Assembly: GCA_030390025.1 (NCBI GenBank)
Contig: CM059432.1
Span: forward strand, 1,736,001 to 1,800,000
Source: Squalus acanthias
Lineage: Eukaryota
Reading direction: 5' to 3'
Length of the DNA: 64,000 bases
The notes under the pieces were generated by a model. That model searched no databases. It was given only the letters and a program-made list of their open reading frames with translations, and was not told the DNA's origin. This document shows, piece by piece, positions 2,004-60,093 of the stretch. How positions within the stretch are numbered: the first letter of the stretch is position 1; each line of letters starts with the position of its first letter. Made by a program: the position numbers and the translations under genes.

Positions 2004-4597
2004 TGAATCATCTCTGAACTGCCTCCAATGCAAGTATATCCTTCCTTAAATAAGGAGACCAAAACTGTACACAGTACTCAAGGTGTGGTCTCACCAATAC
2101 CTTGAACAGTTGTAGCAGGACTTCCCTGCTTTTATACTCCAACCCCTTGAAATAAAGGCCAACATTCCATTTGCCATTTTGATTACTTGCTGTACCTGCA
2201 TGCTAACTTTTTGTGTTTCATGCACAAGGACCCCCAGGTCCCTCTGAACTGTAGCATTTTGTAATCTCTCTCCATTTAAATAATAGTTTGCTTTTTTATT
2301 TTTCCTGCCAAAGTGGATAACCTCGCACTTTCCCACATTATACTCCATCTGCCAAATGTTTGCCCACTCACCTAGCCTGCCTATATCCCTTTGCAGATTC
2401 TTTGAGTCCTCTGCACAACTTGCTTTCCCACCCATCTTTGTATCATCCGCAAACTTGGCTACATTACACTCGATCCCTTCATCCAAGTCATTAATGTAGA
2501 TTGTAAATAGTTGGGGCTCCAGCACCGATCCTTATGGCACCCCACTAGTTACTGTTTGCCAACCGGAAAATGACCCATTTATCCCGACTCGCTGCTTTCT
2601 GTTAGTTAGCCAATTCTCTATCCATGCTAATATATTACCCCCAACTCCGTGAGCTCTTATCTTATGCAGTAAACTTTTATGTGGCCCTTATCGAATGCCT
2701 TCTGGAAATCCAAATACACCACATCCACTGGCTCACCCTTGTCCACCCTGCTTGTTACATCCTCAAAGAACTCCAGCAAATTTGTTAAACATGATTTCCC
2801 TTTCCTAAAACCATGCTGACTCTGTTTGACTGCAGTATGTTTTTCTCAATGCCCTGCTACTGCTTCCTTAATGAAGGACTCCAGCATTTCCCAACGACAG
2901 ATGTTAGGCTAACTGGTCTATAGTTTCCTGCTTTCTGTCTCCCTCCTTTCTTAAATAGGGGTGTTACATTAGCGGTTTTCCAATCCGCTGGGACCTCTCC
3001 AGAGTCCAGGGAATTTTGGTATATTGCAACCAATGCATCCACTATCTCTGCAGCCACTTCTTTTAATACCCTGGGATGCAGGCCAGGGGACTTGTCATCT
3101 TTTAGTCCCATTATTTTACTGAGTACTATTTCCTTAGTGATAGCGATTGTCTTTAGTTCACCACTCCCTGTGGCCCCTTGATTATCCATTATTGGGATGT
3201 TGTTAGTGTCTTCTACAGTGAAGACAGATGCAAAATATTTGTTCAGAGTCTCTGCCATTTCCCCGTTCCCCGTTATTAATTCCCCAGTCTCATCCTCTAA
3301 GGGACCAACGTTTACTTTAGCTACCCTCTTCCTTTTTATTTACCTGTAGAAGCTCTTACTATCTGTTTTAATGTTTCTTGCCAACTTACTCTCATAATTC
3401 CTCTTCTCTCTCTTTATTATTTTTTTAGTCATCCTTTGCTGGTTTTAAAAATTTTCCCAATCCTCTGGTCTCCCACCAATCTTGGCAACATTGTATGCCT
3501 TCGTTTTCCATTTGATGCCATCCCTTACTTCCTTAGTTAGCCACGGATGGTGCTCCCTTCTCTTAAAATCTTTCTTTCTCACTGGAATATATTTTTGTTG
3601 AGAGTTATTAAATATCTCCTTAAATGTCCGCCACTGCATTTCAACTTCCTTACCCTTTAATTTATTTTTCCAGTTCACTTTAGCCAGTTCTGCCCTCATG
3701 CCATTATAATTGCCTTTGTTTAAGATCAGGACACTGGTATGGGATACAACTTTCTCACCCTCCTACTGAATTTGAAATTCAACCATGCTATGATCACTCT
3801 TTCCTAGAGGATCCTTTACTATGAGATCATTTATTAATTCTGTCTCATTACATAGTACCAGATCCAAGATAGCCTGCTCCCTGGTTGGTCCATTACATAC
3901 TGTTCTAGGAAAACATCCCGGATGCACTCTATGAACTCCTCCTCCAGGCTACCATGGCCAATTTGATTTGTCCAATCAATATGGAGATTAAAATCACCCA
4001 TGATTATTACCGTACCTTTTTTACAGACCTCCATTATTTGTTGATTTATACTCTGTCCAACAGCATTGCTACTGTTCGGGGGCCTGTAGACTACGCCCAC
4101 CAGAGACTTTTTCCCCTTATTATTTTTTATCTTCACCCAAACCGATTCTACATCTTGATCTTCTGAGCCAATATCACTTCTCACCACTGCACTGATCCCA
4201 TCCTTTACCAACAAAGCCACCCCACCTCCCTTTCCTTTCTGTCTATCCTTCCGAATTATCATATACCCTGGAATATTCAGTTCCCAGCCCTAGTATCCTT
4301 GCAACCACGTCTCTGTAATGGCGATCAGATCATATCCATTTGTATCTATTTGTGCCGTCAACTCATTTATCTTGTTACGAATGCTGCGTGCATTCAGATA
4401 TAGAGCTTTTAACTTTGTCTTGTTACCATTTTTCCTTGTTTTGGCATTTTTTTCTGTTACACTCTTATTTTTAAACATTCTGTTCCTTCCTGTTAGACTC
4501 TGGTTATTATTTCCCCCATCTCTAGCCTGCTCTATTGCTTTCTCATTTCTCATTGACTTTTTATTTTCCCGCTCACCTGGATCCTTCCCCCCACTAT

Positions 4598-5377
4598 TTA
4601 GTTTAAAGCCCTCTCTACAGCCCTAGTTATTCGATTTGCCAGGACTCTAGCCCCAGCATGGTTCAAGTGAAGCCCGTCCAAACGGAACATCTCCCTCTTA
4701 TCCCAGTACTGGTGCCAGTGCCCCACAAATCGAAACTCATTTCTCCCACACCAGTCTTTGAGCCACTCGTTCATTTCTCTGATCTTATTTGCCCGATGCA
4801 AATTCGCTCGTGGCTCAGGTAGTAATCCAGAGATTATTACCTTTGTGGTTCTGCTTTTTAATTTAGCCCCTAGCTGCTCATACTCTCTCAGCAGAACCTC
4901 TTTCTTTGTCATACCTATGTCATTGGTACCTACGTGGACCATGACAACTGGATCTTCCCCCTCCCACTCCAAGTTTCTCTCCAGCCCAGAGGAGATGTCC
5001 TTAACCCTGGCACCGGGCAGGCAACACAGCCTTCGGGACTCACACTCTCGGCTGCAGAGAACAGTATCTATCCCCCTCACTATCCTGTCCCCAATCACTA
5101 CAACATTTCTTTTTGCTCTCCCCACTTGAATGGCTCCCTGTACCACGGTGCTGTGGTCAGTTTGCTCATCCTCCCTGCAGTCCCTGGCCTCGTCCACACA
5201 GGGAGCAAGGAACTCGTACCTGTTGGACAAGGCCAAGGGCTGAGATTCCTCCACCACTACCTCCTGGAACCCAATACCTGCCTCGCTTGTAGTCACACCC
5301 TCCTGTCCCTGACCATGGGCCAAATTGGAAGTAATTATTCTAGTGAGTGTGACTGCCTCCTGGAACATAGTGTCCAT
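4598..5377 (-). CDS. CR1 ORF1p, SGNH/GDSL esterase domain (N-terminal zinc-finger part missing)
   Basis: Motifs VVVIGDRIVR (GDS block, S replaced by R), CLPGARV, HVGTND and DGLHLN. Ends in RALN*. Confidence 0.85.
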   Translation of the reverse strand: MDTMFQEAVTLTRIITSNLAHGQGQEGVTTSEAGIGFQEVVVEESQPLALSNRYEFLAPCVDEARDCREDEQTDHSTVVQGAIQVGRAKRNVVVIGDRIVRGIDTVLCSRECESRRLCCLPGARVKDISSGLERNLEWEGEDPVVMVHVGTNDIGMTKKEVLLREYEQLGAKLKSRTTKVIISGLLPEPRANLHRANKIREMNEWLKDWCGRNEFRFVGHWHQYWDKREMFRLDGLHLNHAGARVLANRITRAVERALN

Positions 5378-5526
5378 TTAACGCTCCCCCTCCCTAATGT
5401 GTTGCAGTGTCTGAAGCGACATTGCGCCAAACTGTGGAGATTGAAAAGATGGAAAATACAAAGCTTTTTGCCACTTGAGCAACTCAGACACACTTGAAGT
5501 TTGTTATGTTCCCATTCCAAGATGGC

Positions 5527-6088: not shown

Positions 6089-6913
6089 GTTGAAAGAATG
6101 AAAGCGTGACGCTGGCACAAACATCGCGTTATGACTTGATTTGATTTGATCTAGACTTCTCTTCAACTCTTAATGCTGTCCTGCCCTGTGGGTGTGGACA
6201 CTTACTCAGTCTAAAGAAATGCTCCATTGCTGGATTATGGTGTCACGATGTATAAATTGGGCTAAAACATTGCAAGGTATAACCTTTATGAATCACTGGT
6301 TAGACCTGAGCTGGAGTATTGTGTCCAGTTCTGGGCGCCACACTTTAGGAAGGATGTCAATGCCTTGGAGACGGTGCAGAGGAGATTTACCAGAATGGTA
6401 CCAGGGATGAGGGTTTACAGTTGTGGGGAGAGACATAGCGAAGCTGTGGTTATTCTCCTTAGAGCAGTGAAGGTTCAGAGGAGATTTAATAGAAGTGTTC
6501 AAAATAATGAGGTTTTTTTTTCAGAGGCCGGTGTCGGGAGCGGCAGGGAGTGGGGGTACAGTGAGTATTTAAACTCACTTTTGCGGGCTTTTTTCAGAGG
6601 CTTACCAATCTCGCAGACCGGCGGCGGCGTTACAGAGCCACGTCATGATTCAAAAAGTGACGCGGGCAAGAGGAAGCAGCTGATTGGGTGAGTACGGCCA
6701 GGTGAGTATTTATACTACTCTATAGTTTGACAGTTAAGGTTAATAGTTTATAAAGTTTAGAAGGTCTTAATTTTGTGGTTATAGTTTCTAAGGTCTCTGT
6801 TGTGTAGCAGGGAGTGCTAGTAAACAAGGGCCCTTGAATATATCATTTAATTGTAGTGTAATTAGTGGTAATGATTTGCTTTAATTTAATTTAAATTAAT
6901 TAAAGGGTAAGTC

Positions 6914-7863
6914 ATGGCAGCACAGCTCGGCCCCGTGGCATGCTCCTCCTGCACTATGTGGGAAATCAGGGACACTTCCTGTGTCCCTGACGACCATGTG
7001 TGCGGGAAGTGTATCCAGCTGCAGCTACTGGCAGACCGCATTGCGGCGCTGGAGCTGCGAATGGATTCATACTGGAGCATTCGCGATGCTGAGGACATCG
7101 TGGATAGCACGTTTAATGAGTTTGGTCACACCGCAGGTAAAGGCTGCACAGGCAGGAAGGAAATGGGTGACCGCCAGGCAGAGTAGTAGGCACAGGCAGG
7201 TAATGCAGGGGTCCCCTGTGGCCATCCCCCTCTCAAACAGATATACCGCTTTGGATATTGTTGAGGGAGATGGCTTATCGGGGGAAGGAAGCAGCAGCCA
7301 ACTTCCTGGCACCATGGGTGGTTCTGCTGAACAGGATGGGAGGAAAAAGAGCGGAGAGCTATAGTGATAGGGGATTCTATAGTAAGGGGAATAGATAGGC
7401 ATTTCTGCGGCCGCAAACGAGACTTCAGGATGGTATGTTGCCTCCCTGGTGCAAGGGTCAGGGATGTCTCGGAGCGGCTGCAGGGCATTCTGGAGGGGGA
7501 GGGTGAACAGCCAGTTGTCGTGGTGCATATAGGTACCAACGATATAGGGAAAAAATGGGATGAGATCCTAAAAGCTGAATATAGGGAGTTAGGAGGTAAA
7601 TTAAAAAATAGGACCTCAAAGTTAGTAATCTCAGGATTGCTACCAGTGCCACGTGCTAGTCAGAGTAGAAATAGAAGGATATTTCAGATGAATACGTGGC
7701 TAGAGGAATGGTGCAAGGGGGAGGGATTCAAATTCCTGGGACATTGGAACCGGTTCTGGGGTAGGTGGGACAAGTACAAACTGGACGGTTTGCACCTGGG
7801 CAGGACCGGGACCGATGTCCTGGGGGAGTGTTTGCTAGTGCTGTTGGGAAGGGTTTAAACTAA
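6914..7863 (+). pseudogene. CR1 ORF1p: zinc finger (CxxC...CxxC), coiled coil and SGNH esterase, frameshifted
   Basis: MAAQLGPVACSSCTMWE...HVCGKC, LADRIAALEL, IGDSIVRG, HIGTND and DGLHL lie in ORFs 6914-7186, 6981-7364 and 7364-7858. Natural stop TAA at 7861-7863, by comparison with the 59143 copy. Confidence 0.85.
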
Positions 7864-7985
7864 AATGGCAGGGGGTTGGGAACCTGTGCAGGGAGACAGA
7901 GGAAAGGGAAGCAAGGATAGAAGCAAAAGACAGGAAGGAGAAAAGCAAAAGTGGAAGTCAGAGAAATCAAGGGTGTAAATCAAAC

Positions 7986-10900
7986 ATGGCCACAGTAAAC
8001 AATAATTCTAAAAGGTCTAAGAGTGTTAAAAAAACAAGCCTGAAGGCTTTGTGTCTTAATGCAAGGAGCATTCGTAATAAGGTGAATGAATTAGCTGCAC
8101 AAATAGATGTAAACGGATATGATATAATTGGGATTACGGAGACATAGCTCCAGGGTGACCAAGGCTGGGAATTCAACATCCAGGGGTATTCAATATTCAG
8201 GAAAGACAGGCAAAAAGGAAAAGGAGGTGGGGTAGCATTGCTGGTTAAAGAGGAGATTAATACAATAGTAAGGAAGGATATTAGCTCTGATGATGTGGAA
8301 TCTGTATGGGTAGAGCTGAGAAATACCAAGGGGCAGAAAACGTTAGTGGGAGTTGTATACAGACCCCCAAATAGTAATGCTGAGGTTGGGGATGGCATTA
8401 AATGGGAAATTAGAGACGCGTGCAATAAGGGCACAGCAGTTATCATGGGTGACTTTAATCTACATATAGATTGGGCTAACCAAATTAGTAACAATACTGT
8501 GGAGGAGGAATTCCTAGAGTGTATACGGGATGGTTTCCTGGACCAATATGTTGAGGAACCAACTAGAGATCAGGCCATCTTAGACTGGGTATTATGTAAT
8601 GAGAAAGGATTAATTAGCAATCTTGTTGTGCGAGGCCCCTTGGGGAGGAGCGATCATAATATGATAGAATTCTTCATTAAGATGGAGAGTGAAGTAGTTG
8701 ACTCAGAGACTAGGGTCCTGAATTTAAATAAAGGAAACTATGATGGTATGAGGCGCGAATTGGATAGGATGGATTGCGGAACGTTACTTAAAGGGTTGAC
8801 GGTGGATAGGCAATGGCAAACATTTAAAGATCGCATGGATGAACTACAGAATTTGTTCATCCCTGTTTGGCATAAAAATAAAACAAAAAAGGTGACTCAA
8901 CCGTGGCTAACAAGGAAAATTAGGGATAGCATAAGATCCAAGGAGAGGACATGTAAATTGGCCAGAAAAAGCAGCAAACCTTCGGATTGGGAGCAGTTTA
9001 GGATTCAGCAAAGGAGGACAAAGGGATTAATTAAGAGGGGGAAAATAGAGTATGAGAGTAAGCTTGCAGGGAACATAAAAACTGACTGTAAAAGCTTCTA
9101 TAGATATGTGAAGAGAAAAAGATTGGTGAAGTCAAGCGTAGGTCCCTTGCAGTCAGAATCAGGGGAATTTATCATGGGGAACAAAGAAATGGCAGACCAA
9201 TGAAATACATACTTTGGTTCTGTCTTCACAAAGGAGGACACAAATAACCTCCCAGCGATGTCGGGGAACATAGGGTCTAATGAGAGGCAAGAACTGAATG
9301 AAATCAGTATTTGTAGGGAAATGGTGTTAGGGAAATTGACGGGATTGAAGGCCTGATAATCTACATCCTAGGTTACTTAAGTAAGTGGCCCTATAAATAG
9401 TAGATGCATTGCTGGTCATCTTCCAAAATTATATAGACTCTGGAACAGTTCCCATGGATTGGAGGATAGCTAATGTAACCCCACTATTTAAAAAAGGTGG
9501 TAGAGAGAAAACAGGGAATTTTAGACCGGTAAGCCTGACATCGGTAGTGGGGAAAATGCTAGAGTCCATTATAAAAGATGTCGCACAACACCAGGTTATA
9601 GTCCAACAGTTTTATTTGAAATCACAAGCTTTTGGAGCGCTGCTCCTTCGTCAGGTGAAGGGGCAGCTGCTCCGAAAGCTTGTGATTTCAAATAAAACTG
9701 TTGGACTATAACCTGGTGTTGTGCGACTTCTCACTTTTGTCCACCCCAGTCCAACACCGGCATCTCCGCATCATTATAAAAGATGTAACAGCAGAGCACT
9801 TGGAAAACAGTGACAGGATCGGACAAAGTCAACATGGATTTACAAAAGGTAAATCATGCTTGACTAATCTACTGGAAGTTTCTGAGGACGTAACTGGTAG
9901 AATAGATAAGGGAGAACCAGTGGATGTGGTGTATTTGGACTTTCAGAAGGCTTTCGATAAGGTCCCGCATAAGCAATTAGCGTGCAAAGGTAAAGCACAT
10001 GGGATTGGCGGTAAGGTACTGATTTGGATAGAGAACTGGTTGGCAGACAGAAAGCAAAGAGTTGGAATAAACGGGTCTTTTTCCGAGTGGCAGGCAGTGA
10101 CTAGTGGGGTACCGCAGGGATCGGTGCTAGGACCCCAGTTATTCACAATATATATTAATGATCTAGACGAGGGAACTAGATGTAGCATCTCCAAGTTTGC
10201 AGACGACACAAAGCTGGGTGGGTGTGTGTGCTGTGAGGAGGCTGCAGAGAAACTCCAATATGATTTGGACAGGTTGGGTGATTGGGCAGATGCATGGCAG
10301 ATGCAGTATAATGTGGATAAATGCGAGGTTATCCACTTTGGTGGCAAAAACAGGAAGTCAGATTATTATCTGAACGGCAATAGATTGGGAGAAGGGGAAG
10401 TGCAACGAGACCTGGGTGTCCTTGTGCACCAGTCACTGAAGGTAAGCATGCAGGTGCAGCAGGCGGTTAAGAAGGCAAATGGTATGTTGGCCTTCATAGC
10501 GAGAGGATTCGAGTACAGGAGCAAGGATGTCTTGCTGCAGTTGTACTGGGCCTTGGTGAGACCACACCTTGAGTATTGTGTGCAGTTTTGGTCGCTTTAT
10601 CTGAGGAAGGATGTTCTTGCCATGGAGGGAGTGCAGCGATGATTCACCAGACTGATACCTGGGATGGCAGGAATGACGTATGAAGAGAGATTGGGTCGAT
10701 TAGGCTTATATTCGCTTGAGTTTAGAAGAATGAGAGGGGATCTCATTGCAACTTATAAAATTCTAACAGGACTAGACAGACCAGATGCAGGAAGGATGTT
10801 CCCGATGGCGGGGGAGTCCAGAACCAGAGGTCACAGTCTAAGGATAAGAGGTAAGCCATTTAGGACTGAGATGAGGAGGAATTTCTTCACCCAGAGAGTG

Positions 10901-11035
10901 GTGAACCTGTGGAATTCTCTACCACAGAAGGCAGTTGAGGCCAATTCATTAAATATATTCAAGAAGGAGTTAGATATATTTCTTAAGGCTAAAGGGATCA
11001 AGGGATATGGGGAGAAAGCAGGGACAGGGTACTGA
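7986..11035 (+). pseudogene. CR1 ORF2p (APE endonuclease plus reverse transcriptase), disrupted
   Basis: [47 protein letters not shown] and FADDTK. Contains in-frame stops (for example 8146, 9201, 10640) and a PLE insertion. Confidence 0.92.
9582..9771. mobile_element. Penelope-like element terminal fragment with an inverted (palindromic) pLTR arrangement
   Basis: 15-bp TSD CATTATAAAAGATGT at 9567-9581 and 9772-9786, a 148-bp hairpin at 9580-9727, and a hammerhead-like core on the minus strand. Related copies at 24370-24480 and 63948-64000. Confidence 0.8.
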
Positions 11036-14000
11036 ATTTGGATGATCAGCCATGATCTCATTAAATGGCGGAACAGGCTCGAGGGGCCGAATGGCCTACT
11101 CCTGCTCCTATCTTCTATGTTTCTATGTTTCTATGATAGAGTAAATAAGCAGAAACTGTTTCCACTGACAGGAGGGCTGGTAACCAGAGGACACAGATTT
11201 AAGGTAATTTGCAAAAAAGTCAGAGCGGAGATGAGGAGAAATTTTTTGACGCTGTGAGTTGTTGTGATCTGGAAGGCACTGCCTGAAAGGGTGGTGGAGG
11301 CAGATTCAATAATAACTTTCAAAACGGAATTGGATAAATACTTGTAAAGGAATATTTTTCACGGCTAAGGGGAAACAGCAGGTGGGAGTGTGACTAATTG
11401 GAGAGCTCTCCGAGATAAGTGGGGGGAAGGGTCCCGGTGGAGAGAAATCTGGAATGCTAAAGAGAAAAGACAAGGAAGCAGTGCAGGAAAGTGATTGGGG
11501 TAAGGATAACCAGATTGTGTCAGGAAGGGACAGAGCGTACAAACAAAGGAGTGCACTAACAAATAGGGTCCGGGTAAGAAAAAATGGTTATAAGACAAAT
11601 ATGGCCAGAGTACAAAAAAATGTTAAGATGTCTAAAAATGTTAAAAAGACCAATCTAAAGGCACTGTATCTGAATGCACGAAGCATTCGTAATAAGGTAG
11701 ATGAATTAACAGCACAAATAGATGTAAATGGATATGATATGATTGCGATTACGGAGACATGGCTGTAGGGTGACCAAGGCTGGGAGCTGAATATCCAAGG
11801 ATATTCGATATTTAGGAAGGACAGGCGAAAAGGAAAAGGAGGTGGGTGGCATTGTTCGTAAAGGATGAAATCAGAGCAATAGTGAGAAAGGATATTGGCT
11901 CAGAAAATCAAGATGCAGAATCAGTCTGGGTGGAGCTAAGAAGCACCAAGGGGCAGAAAACATTGGTGGGAGTTGTCTATAGGCCTCCAAACAGTAGTGG
12001 TAATGTAGGGGATGGCATCAAACAGCAAATTAGAGATGCATGTAACAAGGGTACTACAGTAATCATGGGAGACTTTAATCTACATATAGACTGGCCAAAC
12101 CAAATTAGCAATAATACTGTGGAGGATGAATTCCTGGAATGTGTACGAGATGGTTTTTTAGAGCAGTACGTTGAGGAGCCAACTAGGGAACAGGCTATCC
12201 TAGGTTGGGTATTGTGCAATGAGAAGGGGTTAATTAATAATCTTGTTGTGCGGGGTCCTTTAGGGAAGAGTGACCATAACATGATAGAATTCTTCATTAA
12301 AATGGAAAGTGAAGAAGTCCAATCCGAAACTAGGGTCCTAAATCTAAATAAAGGAAACTACGATGGTATGAGGAGTGAGTTGGCTATGATAGATTGGGGA
12401 GCTTCATTAAAAGGCATGATGGTGGATAGGCAATGGCTAACATTTAAGGAACGAATGCATGAATTGCAACAGTTATACATTCCTTTCTGGCGCAAAAACA
12501 CAAAAGGAAAAGCGGCCCAACCATGGATAACAAAAGAAATTAAGGATAGTATTAGATCCAAAGAGGAGTCATGTAAAGTTAACAGAAAAAGTAGCAAGCC
12601 TGAGGATTGGAAGCAGTTTAGAGTTCATCAAAAAAGGACAAAGAGATTGATTAAGAGGGGAAAAATAGAGTATGAGAGTAAACTTGCAAGGAACATAAAA
12701 GCGGATTGTAAAAGCTTCTACAAGTATGTAAAAAGAAAAAGATTAGTGAAGACAAATGTAGGTCCCTTACAGTCAGAAACGGGAGAATTGATAATGGGGA
12801 ACAAGGAAATGGCGAGCAATTAAACAAATACTTTGGTTCTGTCTTCACGGAAGAGGACACAAATAACTTCCCAGAAATGCTAGGGAACCAAGGGTCTAGT
12901 GAGAAGGAGGAATTAAAGGAAATTAGTATTAGTAAAAAAATAGTGCTGGAGAAATTAATGGGACTGAAAGCTGATAAATCCCCAGGGCCTGATAATCTTC
13001 ATCCCAGAGTACTAAAAGAGATAGGCATGGAAATAGTGGATGCATTGGTTGTCATCTTCCAAAATTCTATAGATTAGTTCCTGCAGATTGGAGGGTGGCA
13101 AATGTAACCCCACTATTTAAAAAAAAAGGAGGGAGAGAGAAAACAGGGAACTACAGACCGGTTTGTCCTAACATCAGTAGTAGGGAAAATGCTAGAGTCT
13201 ATTATAAAGGAGGTGATAACAGGACACTTAGAAAATATCAACGGGATTAGACAAAGTCAACATGGATTTATGAAAGGGAAATCGTGTTTGACAAACCTAC
13301 TGGAGTTTTTTGAGGATGTAACTGGCAGAATAGATAAGGGAGAACCAGTGGATGTGGTGTATTTGGATTTTCAGAAGGCCTTTGATAAAGTCCCACATAA
13401 GAGGTTAGTGTGCAAAATTAAAGCACATGGGATTGGGGGTAATATACTGGCATGACTGAAAATTGGTTAACAGACAGGAAACAGAGAGTAGGAATAAATG
13501 GGTCTTTTTCGGGGTGGCAGGCGGTGACTAGTGGGGTACCGCAGGGATCAGTGCTTGGGCCCCAGCTATTCACAATATATATCAATGATTTGGATGAGGG
13601 AACCAAATGCAATATTTCCAAGTTTGCTGACGACACGAAACTAGGTGGGATTATGAGTTGTGAGGAGGATGCAAAGAGGCTTCAAGGCGATTTAAACAAG
13701 TTGAGTGAGTGGGCAAATACATGACAGATGCAGTATAACGTGGATAAATGTGAAGTTATAGAGTCATAGGGGGAGAAATTCAGTATCACCCCATTTGGGG
13801 CGCAATTATCGGCCGGGCGCAAAGATTAGCGCCTGGCGCTAATTATCGCCACCGACGGCAAACTTGACTTTTAACGCCCCTGGAGGTGATTGGAGCGCTA
13901 AATCAGGCGCTACACACCTGTCTTAAGGCGCAAAGGCCGAGGAGCGAGGCGCTAACTCAGAGCGCGGGCGCAGCGCAGGTGCTGTCAGTTAGCGATGGAA

Positions 14001-56151: not shown

Positions 56152-59020
56152 TCAGTACCCTGTCCCTGCTTTCTCCCCATATCCCTTGATCCCTTTAGCC
56201 TTAAGAAATATATCTAACTCCTTCTTGAATATATTTAATGAATTGGCCTCAACTGCCTTCTGTGGTCGAGAATTCCACAGGTTCACCACTCTCTGGGTGA
56301 AGAAATTCCTCCTCATCTCAGTCCTAAATGGCTTACCCCTTATCCTTAGATTGTGACCCCTGGTTCTGGACTCCCCCGCCATCGGGAACATCCTTCCTGC
56401 ATCTAATCTGTCTAGTCCTGTTAGAATTTTATAAGTTTCAATGAGATCCTGAGATCCCCTCTCATTCTTCTAAACTCTAGCGAATACAAGCCCAATTTTC
56501 CCAATCTCTCTTCATACGTCATTCCTGCCATCCCAGGTATCAGTCTGGTGAATCTTCGCTGCACTCCCTCCATGGCAAGAACATCCTTCCTCAGATAAGG
56601 CGACCAAAACTGCACACAATACTCAAGGTGTGGTCTCACCAAGGCCCTGTACAACTGCAGCAAGACATCCTTGCTCCTGTACTCGAACCCTCTCGCTATG
56701 AAGGCCAATATACCATTTGCCTTCTTAACCGCCTGCTGCACCTGCATGCTTATCTTCAGCGTCTGGTGCACAAGGACTCCCAGGTCTCATTGCACGTCCC
56801 CTTTTCCCACTCTATTGCCGTTCAGATAATAATCTGCCTTCCTGTTTTTGCCACCAAAGTGGATAACCTCGCATTTATCCATATTATACTGCATCTGCCA
56901 TGCATCTGCCCAATCACCCAACTTGTCCAAATCATACTGGAGTTTCTCTGCATCCTCCTCACAACACACATGCCCACCCAGCTTTGTGTCGTCTACAAAC
57001 TTGGAGATATTACATCTAGTTCCCTCGTCTAGATCATTAATATATATTGTGAATAACTGGGGTCCTAGCACCGATCCCTGCGGTACCCCACTAGTCAGTG
57101 CCTGCCACTCGGAAAAAGACCCGTTTATTCCAACTCTTTGCTTTCTGTCTGCCAACCAGTTCTCTATCCAAGTCAGTACCTTACCCCCAATCCCATGTGT
57201 TTTAACTTTGCACACTAATCTCTTATGCGGGACCTTATCGAAAGCCTTCTGAAATTCCAAATACACCACATCCACTGGTTCTCCCTCATCTATTCTAACA
57301 GTTACATCCTCAAAAAATTCCAGTAGATTAGTCAAACATGATTTACCTTTTGTAAATCCATGTTGACTTTGTCCGATCCTGTCACTGTTTTCCAAGTGCT
57401 CTGCTATTACATCTTTTATAATGGACTCTAGCATTTTCCCCACTACCGATGTCAGGCTTACCGGTCTATAATTCCCCGTTTTCTCTCTCCCACCTTTTTT
57501 AAATAGTGGGGTAACATTAGCTACCCTTCAATCCATGGGAACTGTTCCAGAGTCTATAGAATTTTGGGAGATGACCAGCAATGCATCTACTATTTCTAGG
57601 GCCACTTCCTTAAGTACCCTAGGATGTAGATTATCAGGCCCTGGGGATTTATCGGCCTTCAATCCCGTCAATTTCCGTAACACCATTTCCCTACAAATAC
57701 TGATTTCATTCAGTTCTTCCCTCTCATTGGACCCTATGTTCCCCGACATCTCTGGGAGGTTATTTGTGTCCTCCTTTGTGACGACAGAACCAAAGTATGC
57801 ATTTAATTGGTCTGTCATTTCTTTGTTCCCCATTATAAATTCCCCTGATTCTGACTGCAAGGGACCTACGCTTGACTTCACCAATCTTTTTCTCTTCACA
57901 TATCTATAGAAGCTTTTACAGTCAGTTTTTATGTTCCTCGCAAGCTTACTCTCATATTCTATTTCCCCCCTCTTAATTAATCCCTTTGTCCTCCTTTGCT
58001 GAATCCTAAACTGCTACCAATCCTCAGGTTTGCTGCTTTTTCTGGCCAATTTATATGTCCTCTCCTTGGATCTTATGCTATCCCTAATTTCCCTCGTTAG
58101 CCACGGTTGAGTCACCTTTTTTGTTTTATTTTTATGCCAAACAGGGATGAACAAATTCTGTAGTTCATCCATGCGATCTTTAAATGTTTGCCATTGCCTA
58201 TCCACCGTCAACCCTTTAAGTAACGTTCCCCAATCCATCCTAGCCAATTCGCGCCTCATACCATCGTAGTTTCCTTTATTTAAATTCAGGACCCTAGTCT
58301 CTGAGTCAACTACTTTACTCTCCATCTTAATGAAGAATTCTATCATATTATGATCACTCCTCCCCAAGGGGCCTCGCACAACAAGATTGCTAATTAATCC
58401 TGTCTCATTACATAATACCCAGTCTAAGATGGCCTGATCTCTAGTTGGTTCCTCGACATATTGGTCCAGGAAACCATCCCGTATACACTCTAGGAATTCC
58501 TCCTCCACAGTATTGTTACTAATTTGGTTAACCCAATCTATATTTGATTAAAGTCACCCATGATAACTGCTGTGCCCTTATTGCACGCGTCTCTAATTTC
58601 CCGTTTAATGCCATCCCCAACCTCAGCATTACTGTTTGGGGGTCTGTATACAACTCCCACTAACGTTTTCTGCCCCTTGGTATTTCTCAGCTCTACCCAT
58701 ACAGATTCCACATCATCAGAGCTAATATCCTTCCTTACTATTGTGTTAATGTCCTCTTTAACCAGCAATGGTACCCTATCTCCTTTTCCTTTTTGCCTGT
58801 CCCTCCTGAATATTGAATACCCCTGGATGTTGAATTCCCAGCCTTGGTCACCTTGGAGCCATGTCTCCGTAATCCCAATTATATCATATCCGTTTACATC
58901 TATTTGCGCAGCTAATTCATCCACCTTATTACGAATGCTCCTCGCATTAAGACACAAAGCCTTCAGGCTTGTTTTTTTAACACTCTTAGACCTTTTAGAA
59001 TTATTATTTACTGTGGCCAT
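56152..59020 (-). pseudogene. CR1 ORF2p (APE plus RT), disrupted
   Basis: ORFs 58538-59020, 58014-58508, 57528-57899, 56787-57443, 56421-56771 and 56152-56391. Confidence 0.92.
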
Positions 59021-59142: not shown

Positions 59143-60093
59143 TTAGTTTAAACCCTCCCCAACAGCACTAGCAAACACTCCCCCAAGGACATCAGTCCTG
59201 GTCCTGCCCAGGTGCAAACCGTCCAGTTTGTACTGGTCCCACCTCCCCCAGAACCGGTTCCAATGTCCCAGGAATTTGAATCCCTCCACCTTGCACCATT
59301 CCTCTAGCCACGTATTCATCTGAAATATCCTTCTATTTCTACTCTGACTAGCACGTGGCACCAGTAGCAATCCTGAGATTACTACCTTTGAGGTCCTATT
59401 TTTTAATTTACCTCCTAACTCCCTATATTCAGCTTTTAGGACCTCATCCCGGTTTTTACCTATATCGTTGGTACCTATATGCACCACGACAACTGGCTGT
59501 TCACCCTCCCTCTCCAGAATTCCCTGCAGCCGCTCTGAGACATCCTTGACCCTTGCACCAGGGAGGCAACATACCATCCTGGAGTCTCGTTTGCGGCCGC
59601 AGAAACGCCTATCTATTCCCCTTACAATAGAATCCCCTATCACTATAGCTCTCCGACTCGTTTTCCTCCCGTCCTGTGCAGCAGAACCACCCATGGTGCC
59701 AGGAAGTTGGCTGCTGCTGCCTTCCCCCGATAAGCCATCTCCCTCAACAATATCCAAAGCGGTATATCAGTTTGAGAGGGGGATGGCCAAAGGGGACCCC
59801 TGAACTACCTGCTTGCACCTACTACTCTGCCTGTCGGTCACCCATTCCCTTCCTGCCTGTGCAGACTTTACCTGCAGTGTGACCAACTGATTAAACGTGC
59901 TATCCACGACGTCCTCAGCATCGCGAATGCTCCAGTATGTATCCATTCGCAGCTCCAGCGCCACAATGCGGTCTGCCAGTAGCTGCAGCTGGATACACTT
60001 CCCGCACACATGGTCGTCAGGGACACAGGAAGTATCCCTGATTTCCCACATAGTGCAGGAGGAGCATGCCACGGGGCCGAGCTGTGCTGCCAT
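59143..60093 (-). pseudogene. CR1 ORF1p (zinc finger plus SGNH esterase), frameshifted
   Basis: ORFs 59767-60093 and 59143-59757, with GDS, GTND and DGLH motifs. Ends in EGLN*. Confidence 0.87.

Follow-up and report, generated by a model that had tools for sequence, protein, structure and literature searches.

How do ribosomes reach the second open reading frame (ORF2) of a vertebrate CR1 retrotransposon? The question was raised by a CR1 long interspersed element (LINE) of Squalus acanthias (GCA_030390025.1, contig CM059432.1, 1,736,001-1,800,000 of the forward strand; this stretch of 64,000 nucleotides (nt) is called the window, and positions are counted within it), for which a first-pass annotation had proposed that ORF1 and ORF2 are joined, Gag-Pol fashion, by a programmed -1 frameshift. 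Conservation of the sequence supports that proposal, and we hold it about 80% probable that the junction is a programmed -1 ribosomal frameshift signal giving an ORF1-ORF2 fusion.

The LINE whose ORF1/ORF2 junction lies in this interval encodes an SGNH esterase in ORF1, and its ORF2 encodes an endonuclease and a reverse transcriptase (RT). The annotated layout of the junction is correct throughout: TTTAAAC (U_UUA_AAC) occupies 7854-7860, the TAA stop adjoins it at 7861-7863, and the -1 frame is free of stops from 7839, via the ATG at 7986, up to 8144, the other frames being closed (frame 0 at 7861 and 7918, +1 frame at 7856 and 7976). A sister copy is laid out alike, as had also been noted, with the same 10-mer at 59155-59146 and the ATG at 59020. 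That ORF1 ends GGT TTA AAC TAA holds for 28 of the 30 closest copies, which keep an extra base at about 7821. The exceptions are L012 and the flagged copy itself, in which a 1-nt deletion near 7821 makes the esterase frame terminate at 7856-7858, off the heptamer. With additional ORF1 frameshifts near 7121 and 7352 and an ORF2 stop at 8145, the flagged copy is a dead relic. The features up to the ORF1 stop are listed here; subfamily counts refer to the 13 subfamilies defined below.

6914-7863, + strand: ORF1 of the flagged CR1 (Cys-pair N-terminus, SGNH esterase), with 1-nt indels near 7121, 7352 and 7821.
7836-7838, + strand: last -1-frame stop ahead of the heptamer, capping the ORF1/ORF2 overlap at 22 nt upstream of the ORF1 stop, or at 10 nt in one subfamily.
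7854-7860, + strand: U_UUA_AAC, the slippery heptamer on which the -1 shift is predicted; it is in phase with ORF1 where copies are unshifted.
7861-7863, + strand: ORF1 stop right after the heptamer (TAA in 10 of 13 subfamilies, TAG in 3, TGA in none).

Heptamers of the form XXXYYYZ are found at 272 of the 64,000 + strand positions of the window, so a single one means little; the weight of the evidence, as far as the sequences tell, is in the fixed place and phase of the heptamer across divergent subfamilies. Random sampling of the genome (400 kb) had yielded only two further junctions, and a pattern search was used instead. A sample blind to the junction was drawn with an esterase-core pattern lying more than 300 nt upstream of it, taking the first 100 of 19,359 genome matches (the reversed pattern gave zero matches). 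TTTAAAC was present at the expected place in 78 of these 100 copies and with 1-2 mismatches in another 9; the other 13 had no heptamer in the 50-nt search window, some being visibly indel-shifted and others cut or interrupted. In the 82 blind copies with both anchors, the endonuclease frame was -1 in 58, 0 in 16 and +1 in 8, a distribution that fits descent with decay from -1 parents.

Subfamilies were then defined from a pool of the blind copies and copies found by similarity, most of the similarity queries containing the junction or the terminal Leu-Asn (LN) of ORF1; 28 loci without the core pattern were excluded. Clustering gave 20 clusters of at least 2 copies and 8 singletons. The ORF2 frame offset, whose variation the first-pass annotation had named as a possible objection, was -1 in 15 of the 16 clusters with a linker length seen at least twice. 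Thirteen subfamilies were kept for detail, omitting a four-copy cluster with a 187-nt linker, a near-duplicate and one apparent recombinant. Their ORF1 cores are 45-94% identical, with a median difference of 41% at four-fold sites.

Free variation of the Leu and Asn codons, another objection anticipated in the annotation, was looked for across these subfamilies and none was found: the last two ORF1 codons are TTA in 13/13 and AAC in 13/13. Elsewhere TTA accounts for 29 of 194 Leu codons and AAC for 38 of 85 Asn codons, and none of the 11 other invariant Leu positions uses one codon only. The first U of the heptamer, a third codon position, is kept under Gly, Ala, Asp and His (GGT in 5, GCT in 5, GAT in 2 and CAT in 1 of the 13 subfamilies). 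The same counts dispose of the overlapping site of the yeast L-A virus type, G_GGU_UUA, which the annotation had also pointed out, GGT preceding TTA in only those 5 subfamilies. The youngest subfamily has the site in 28/28 copies. Copy-level deviation at the heptamer was low in general but was left out of the argument, because junction detection favours matching copies. The ORF1 stop is TAA or TAG, never TGA, in the 13 subfamilies and in the more distant loci L167, L176 and L182.

This pattern bears on what we regard as the main rival explanation, ahead of splicing and other routes: that ORF2 is made as a separate protein through termination and AUG-independent reinitiation near the ORF1 stop, the heptamer, stop and G-rich run serving coupling or protein constraint (ORF1 ending in LN, ORF2 beginning FKL...G). 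For mammalian L1, the parts of PMC5009743 and PMC2881922 that deal with it suggest that ORF2 is initiated in an unusual way that needs no AUG, which lends the idea a precedent. Reinitiation does not predict, however, an invariant TTA AAC or an invariant first U under four amino acids, and we consider it unlikely. Protein constraint faces the difficulty that the profile match of the esterase to 4C1B ends short of the LN columns and that a sister esterase clade of 35 rows ends without LN.

The linker between the heptamer and the endonuclease also bears on the reading frame.

7854-8039, + strand: -1-frame linker, stop-free and purine-rich, running into the endonuclease.
7986-7988, + strand: in-frame ATG, lineage-specific, in 23 of 29 modal-length copies of the flagged subfamily.
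8040-11137, + strand: what is left of ORF2 (endonuclease, RT), then the 3' end and its microsatellite tail; interrupted by a stop at 8145 and by more lesions.

Eight linker lengths were found (116, 131, 137, 155, 161, 179, 182 and 188 nt), all of them 2 mod 3. Stops in the -1 linker, also raised beforehand as a potential problem, were absent from 116 of 121 modal-length copies, and frames 0 and +1 were closed in 121/121; the linker therefore evolves as coding sequence starting at the heptamer. These copy-level counts are unfiltered; the representatives, with 0 stops against 46.9 expected, were picked stop-free where possible and are not relied on. In L069, most of the linker is deleted (32 nt remain) and the -1 frame into the endonuclease is preserved.

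The ATG at 7986 is present as annotated but proved specific to its lineage and not a general ORF2 start, which strengthens the case for frameshifting. In five of the 13 subfamilies the -1 frame contains no AUG ahead of what we take, from APE endonucleases, to be the first catalytic Asn. The youngest subfamily (mean distance 1.1%) is among the AUG-less ones, and 5 of its 20 copies picked for an open ORF1 have an uninterrupted frame of 965-968 codons that starts at the heptamer, takes in the RT motif and has its first Met at codon 166. The -1-frame stop usually lies 22 nt ahead of the ORF1 stop and in one subfamily 10 nt ahead, directly before the heptamer; ribosomes therefore cannot enter ORF2 any earlier than at the heptamer. 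As for reinitiation, near-cognate codons occur in all linkers and an AUG in 8/13, which suits it, but no start-like codon stands at a shared position and none of the 13 subfamilies has a UAAUG- or AUGA-type overlap of the ORF1 stop with an ORF2-frame AUG.

The upstream -1 stop is also where a splicing account would have to act. Under it, ORF2 would come from a spliced or internally started RNA, for instance via the AG at 7837-7838 where the -1 frame opens. Most copies have a TAG at the place of 7836-7838 in about 10 of 13 subfamilies, and a donor-like GGTAAGT stands just ahead of the ORF1 ATG. Three subfamily representatives and L167 nevertheless lack the AG, a pyrimidine tract is absent, and in one subfamily a -1 stop intervenes between the AG and the heptamer. 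Contigs of 8 sequencing runs from other organisms, guessed to be RNA, had no recurring joint there and no change at 7854-7859 among the matches listed; such contigs show presence only and are no measure of expression or of the absence of splicing. We regard this account as very improbable. Splice-donor-like sequences in the 5' region lie at 6905-6913 (directly before the ORF1 ATG) and at 6700-6710, both on the + strand.

Downstream of the stop, the first-pass annotation had suggested that a G-rich run could act as a stimulatory hairpin or quadruplex.

7871-7880, + strand: G-run (G5-TT-G3) beginning 11 nt past the heptamer, conserved in position; candidate unstructured stimulator.
7868-7889, + strand: weak hairpin of the flagged subfamily (-10 kcal/mol, z -2.4), its fold common to only one other of the 13 subfamilies.
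7865-7867, + strand: +1-frame ATG of a 37-codon mini-ORF, in 3 of 13 subfamily representatives, unconserved.

The G-run itself stood up to comparison. A run of at least 4 G begins 9-13 nt past the heptamer in 15 of 16 representatives (the 13 subfamilies with L167, L176 and L182), against 4% of background positions, and at the copy level the G-run falls within 8-13 nt of the heptamer in 164/169. Gly codons at the G-run are GGG in 25 of 31 cases as compared to 11 of 56 elsewhere in the linker, an excess indicating that the constraint points to RNA and not to protein. The structural part of the suggestion fared less well. The hairpin, which starts 8 nt past the heptamer, is weak and confined essentially to its subfamily, and a two-tier quadruplex was favoured by ViennaRNA in just 2/16 representatives, so that a quadruplex at the G-run is an open but weak prediction. 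Hairpin folding and consensus analysis revealed no conserved stem-loop or pseudoknot of the classical type 5-9 nt downstream, pseudoknots not being modelled directly. Two other candidates were discarded: the mini-ORF at 7865, unconserved across subfamilies, and a C-rich ORF1 stretch about 550-650 nt upstream as a pairing partner of the G-run, whose recurrence is accounted for by proline codons.

To see how far the arrangement extends, we turned to relatives in other organisms. The esterase-core pattern gave 17 metagenome loci, with the full ORF1 end visible in 8; L168, L171 and L172 end before or within the heptamer and have no junction. The distant relative L167 carries U_UUA_AAC_UAG, and its -1 frame reaches the endonuclease without a Met. 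In L176 and L182, ORF1 ends in Gly-Asn (GN) on G_GGA_AAC_UAG; the -1 frame of L182 is open into the endonuclease, with a Met near it, and L176 is cut short. A quick esterase tree, from which all clade counts here are taken, placed both loci in a separate 22-row clade containing all 11 GN-ending rows, and in the GN-ending proteins (n=9) the preceding residue is Gln or Ser, either of which can be coded with a final G. The residues thus swap yet the XXXYYYZ form persists, a swap predicted neither by protein constraint nor by reinitiation. ORF1 proteins near the GN clade (P0154, P0174, P0203, P0144 and P0194) end in KN, EN or SN; a KN ending could be A_AAA_AAC, a third shift-prone heptamer.

Four loci of an L2-type group (L169, L170, L173 and L181) behave differently: ORF1 ends on UGA followed by C (UGA CAU, UGA CAA, UGA CUA G) and frame 0 carries on, reaching an endonuclease-like motif in three. 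The esterase itself therefore requires neither LN nor a -1 offset. A UGA-C context is a known stop-codon readthrough context, and these loci look like readthrough yielding the same kind of fusion.

At the protein level, the ORF1 esterase tree groups the CR1 with reptile, frog, eel, shark and ray proteins, in a vertebrate clade (95% support in the Shimodaira-Hasegawa-like approximate likelihood-ratio test) where 48 of 51 rows end in LN; ten proteins selected for their LN ending include lizards, a snake, turtles, a frog and an eel. The closest named ORF1 relatives come from sharks and rays. Only 1 of 54 proteins has, ahead of LN, a residue without a U-ending codon; the figures for the next two positions are 23 and 16. 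The position after shows such a residue in only 1/54 as well, and helix geometry may contribute to the residue choice ahead of LN. One shark-like CR1 ORF1, P0004, is filed as a Pseudomonas aeruginosa SGNH hydrolase, probably through contamination. Tetrapod junction DNA was sought in viral contigs, plasmids and prokaryote genome contigs, with none found (one unrelated match in the last), and the portion of the PMC4316615 supplements that was searched gave two matches, both outside the junction.

It should be considered that several observations weigh against frameshifting or reduce the force of the above. The 13 subfamilies are related by descent and are not independent trials, and codon invariance alone is indecisive, since 5 of 41 other invariant degenerate sites also use a single codon. 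Among the blind two-anchor copies, 24/82 lie outside the -1 frame, which we read as indels in dead copies, and one of the 16 clusters has a +1 modal length (187 nt; four copies, decayed). Eight of the 13 subfamilies, the flagged one included, do have an in-frame linker AUG, at a position that differs among them (codons 7 to 57). The G_GGA_AAC swap is known from two loci, one of them cut short; L175, nearest to the L2-type group, has an LN ending whose codons are not slippery, and its downstream frame is +1; and the tetrapod evidence is at the protein level. A heptamer without a stimulator shifts only weakly, and no conserved downstream hairpin was found in the 16 representatives (z from -2.0 to +1.9), RNAalifold gave no consensus pairs downstream of or across the heptamer, and the G-run has no long-range partner at a conserved position, the best partners differing in place among subfamilies. 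The lack of a structured stimulator in these folds is a point that reinitiation can claim.

A further account would have the fusion arise by transcriptional slippage on T3-A3, or treat the junction as a once-working -1 shift now merely inherited. Every copy in the window is dead, which suits such an account. Runs of three are short for polymerase slippage, however; the RNA-run contigs show no indel at the heptamer, and the youngest subfamily keeps the site in 28/28 copies together with open AUG-less ORF2 frames. This is the least probable of the explanations we weighed, and programmed -1 frameshifting remains the preferred one.

The other CR1 copies of the window fit the family description.

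59143-59152, - strand: heptamer and stop of the sister copy, its esterase frame ending in phase on the heptamer.
4598-4607, - strand: third CR1, from a different lineage (52% ORF1 identity), with heptamer and TAA, G-run at +9, open -1 frame and a 188-nt linker.

PF13472 (esterase) was matched above the Pfam cut-off in ORF1 of the sister copy (E=2e-12), and the profile match of the ORF1 esterase to 4C1B reached E=4e-41. The ORF1 N-terminus shows two CxxC pairs in translation, with no Pfam match for a zinc finger or leucine zipper, and ORF2 matches PF03372, PF14529 and PF00078, that is, an APE endonuclease followed by RT. The 3' tail consists of 8-nt repeats and ends near 11137; a short tandem-repeat tail is a feature of vertebrate CR1 LINEs. 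About 270 nt past it lies a fourth, 5'-truncated CR1 (11411-12823, + strand), whose start nearly coincides with the G-run and which no longer has the heptamer. Two CR1s of different lineages, at 2011-5500 (- strand) and 6500-11137 (+ strand), stand head to head about 1 kb apart.

The layout, its conservation and the absence of AUG codons are read directly from the DNA; slippage, a fusion product and a role of the G-run are what we infer from them. In the mechanism we propose, most ribosomes would read Leu-Asn and terminate, releasing ORF1p. In a minority, the stop codon and the G-run located at the mRNA entry channel would slow the ribosome while it moves back by one base on the heptamer; reading would resume at CUA (Leu) and cross a linker of 40-65 residues into the endonuclease and RT. 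For the flagged subfamily the predicted joint would be G-L-N followed by L-K-W-Q-G, in a fusion of some 1,280 residues. The outcome would be a high ORF1p:ORF2p ratio, with the enzyme tethered to ORF1p.

The element is closest to vertebrate CR1 of type IVB, CR1 subgroup 7 (PMC4120745): in common are the SGNH esterase of ORF1, an ORF2 made up of APE endonuclease and RT, and a microsatellite tail, and apparently the Cys-pair N-terminus. The passages of that paper on type IVB make no mention of a frameshift or overlap, and the -1 junction is what we add. Coronaviruses (U_UUA_AAC in infectious bronchitis virus), retroviruses and animal long terminal repeat (LTR) retrotransposons use cassettes with the same in-phase XXXYYYZ, the structural protein first and the polymerase in -1, as outlined in sections of PMC5009743, where U_UUA_AAC and G_GGA_AAC count among the most shift-prone heptamers in mammalian ribosomes. 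Unlike those cassettes, CR1 has no conserved stem-loop or pseudoknot 5-9 nt downstream, and a G-run at 9-13 nt instead, a spacing nearer to the 11-14 nt given there for arterivirus and cardiovirus signals; that 2016 review, in the part concerned, knew of no natural quadruplex stimulator and does not name CR1.

SART1, with its UAAUG coupling, and mammalian L1, with reinitiation, likewise have a bicistronic LINE RNA and an ORF2 that depends on ORF1 translation; CR1 differs from both in having no overlapping AUG, a coding-like linker in fixed -1 phase and a predicted fusion. LINE frameshifting is not without precedent, since a figure legend of PMC5911963 states that TRE5-A and TRE3-A of Dictyostelium, also APE-type non-LTR elements, need a -1 frameshift for ORF2. 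These are amoebal and tRNA-gene targeted, with an unrelated ORF1, and the legend names no shift site; the passages of PMC5006619 contribute nothing further on this. For Paramecium LINEs, +1 shifting, reinitiation or readthrough has been suggested (PMC5405496, in part). The relevant passages of PMC3708506 and PMC2881922 call translation of the second LINE gene unclear, the worked-out cases, L1 and SART1, being reinitiation. Frameshifting does not appear in the passages of PMC2881922, PMC3708506, PMC4120745 and PMC3905857, and those of PMC11835228 bring it up for retroviruses only. No description of a CR1 ORF2 frameshift or translation mode was found in this literature, whose coverage leaves out the original CR1, SART1 and L1 translation papers, which may contain an early comment on overlapping CR1 ORFs; a CR1 -1 frameshift is thus probably, though not established to be, new in print.

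On a broader and tentative reading, to which we give somewhat less than even odds, the LINE clade that predominates in sharks, reptiles and birds would make its RT as a Gag-Pol-like -1 fusion with a stimulator of a new type, an unstructured G-run 9-13 nt past the site (protein-bound, contacting ribosomal RNA or forming a quadruplex), and esterase LINEs would have switched among U_UUA_AAC, G_GGA_AAC and UGA readthrough for the same fusion. If the G-run does stimulate shifting without a hairpin, it would be an additional stimulator type, within a candidate signal of about 30 nt. If the frameshift reading is true, the LINE that dominates in many vertebrates would rely on the same solution as retroviruses, its real ORF2 protein would be an esterase-endonuclease-RT fusion, and ORF2 annotations that start at the first AUG would be wrong for lineages such as the AUG-less ones.

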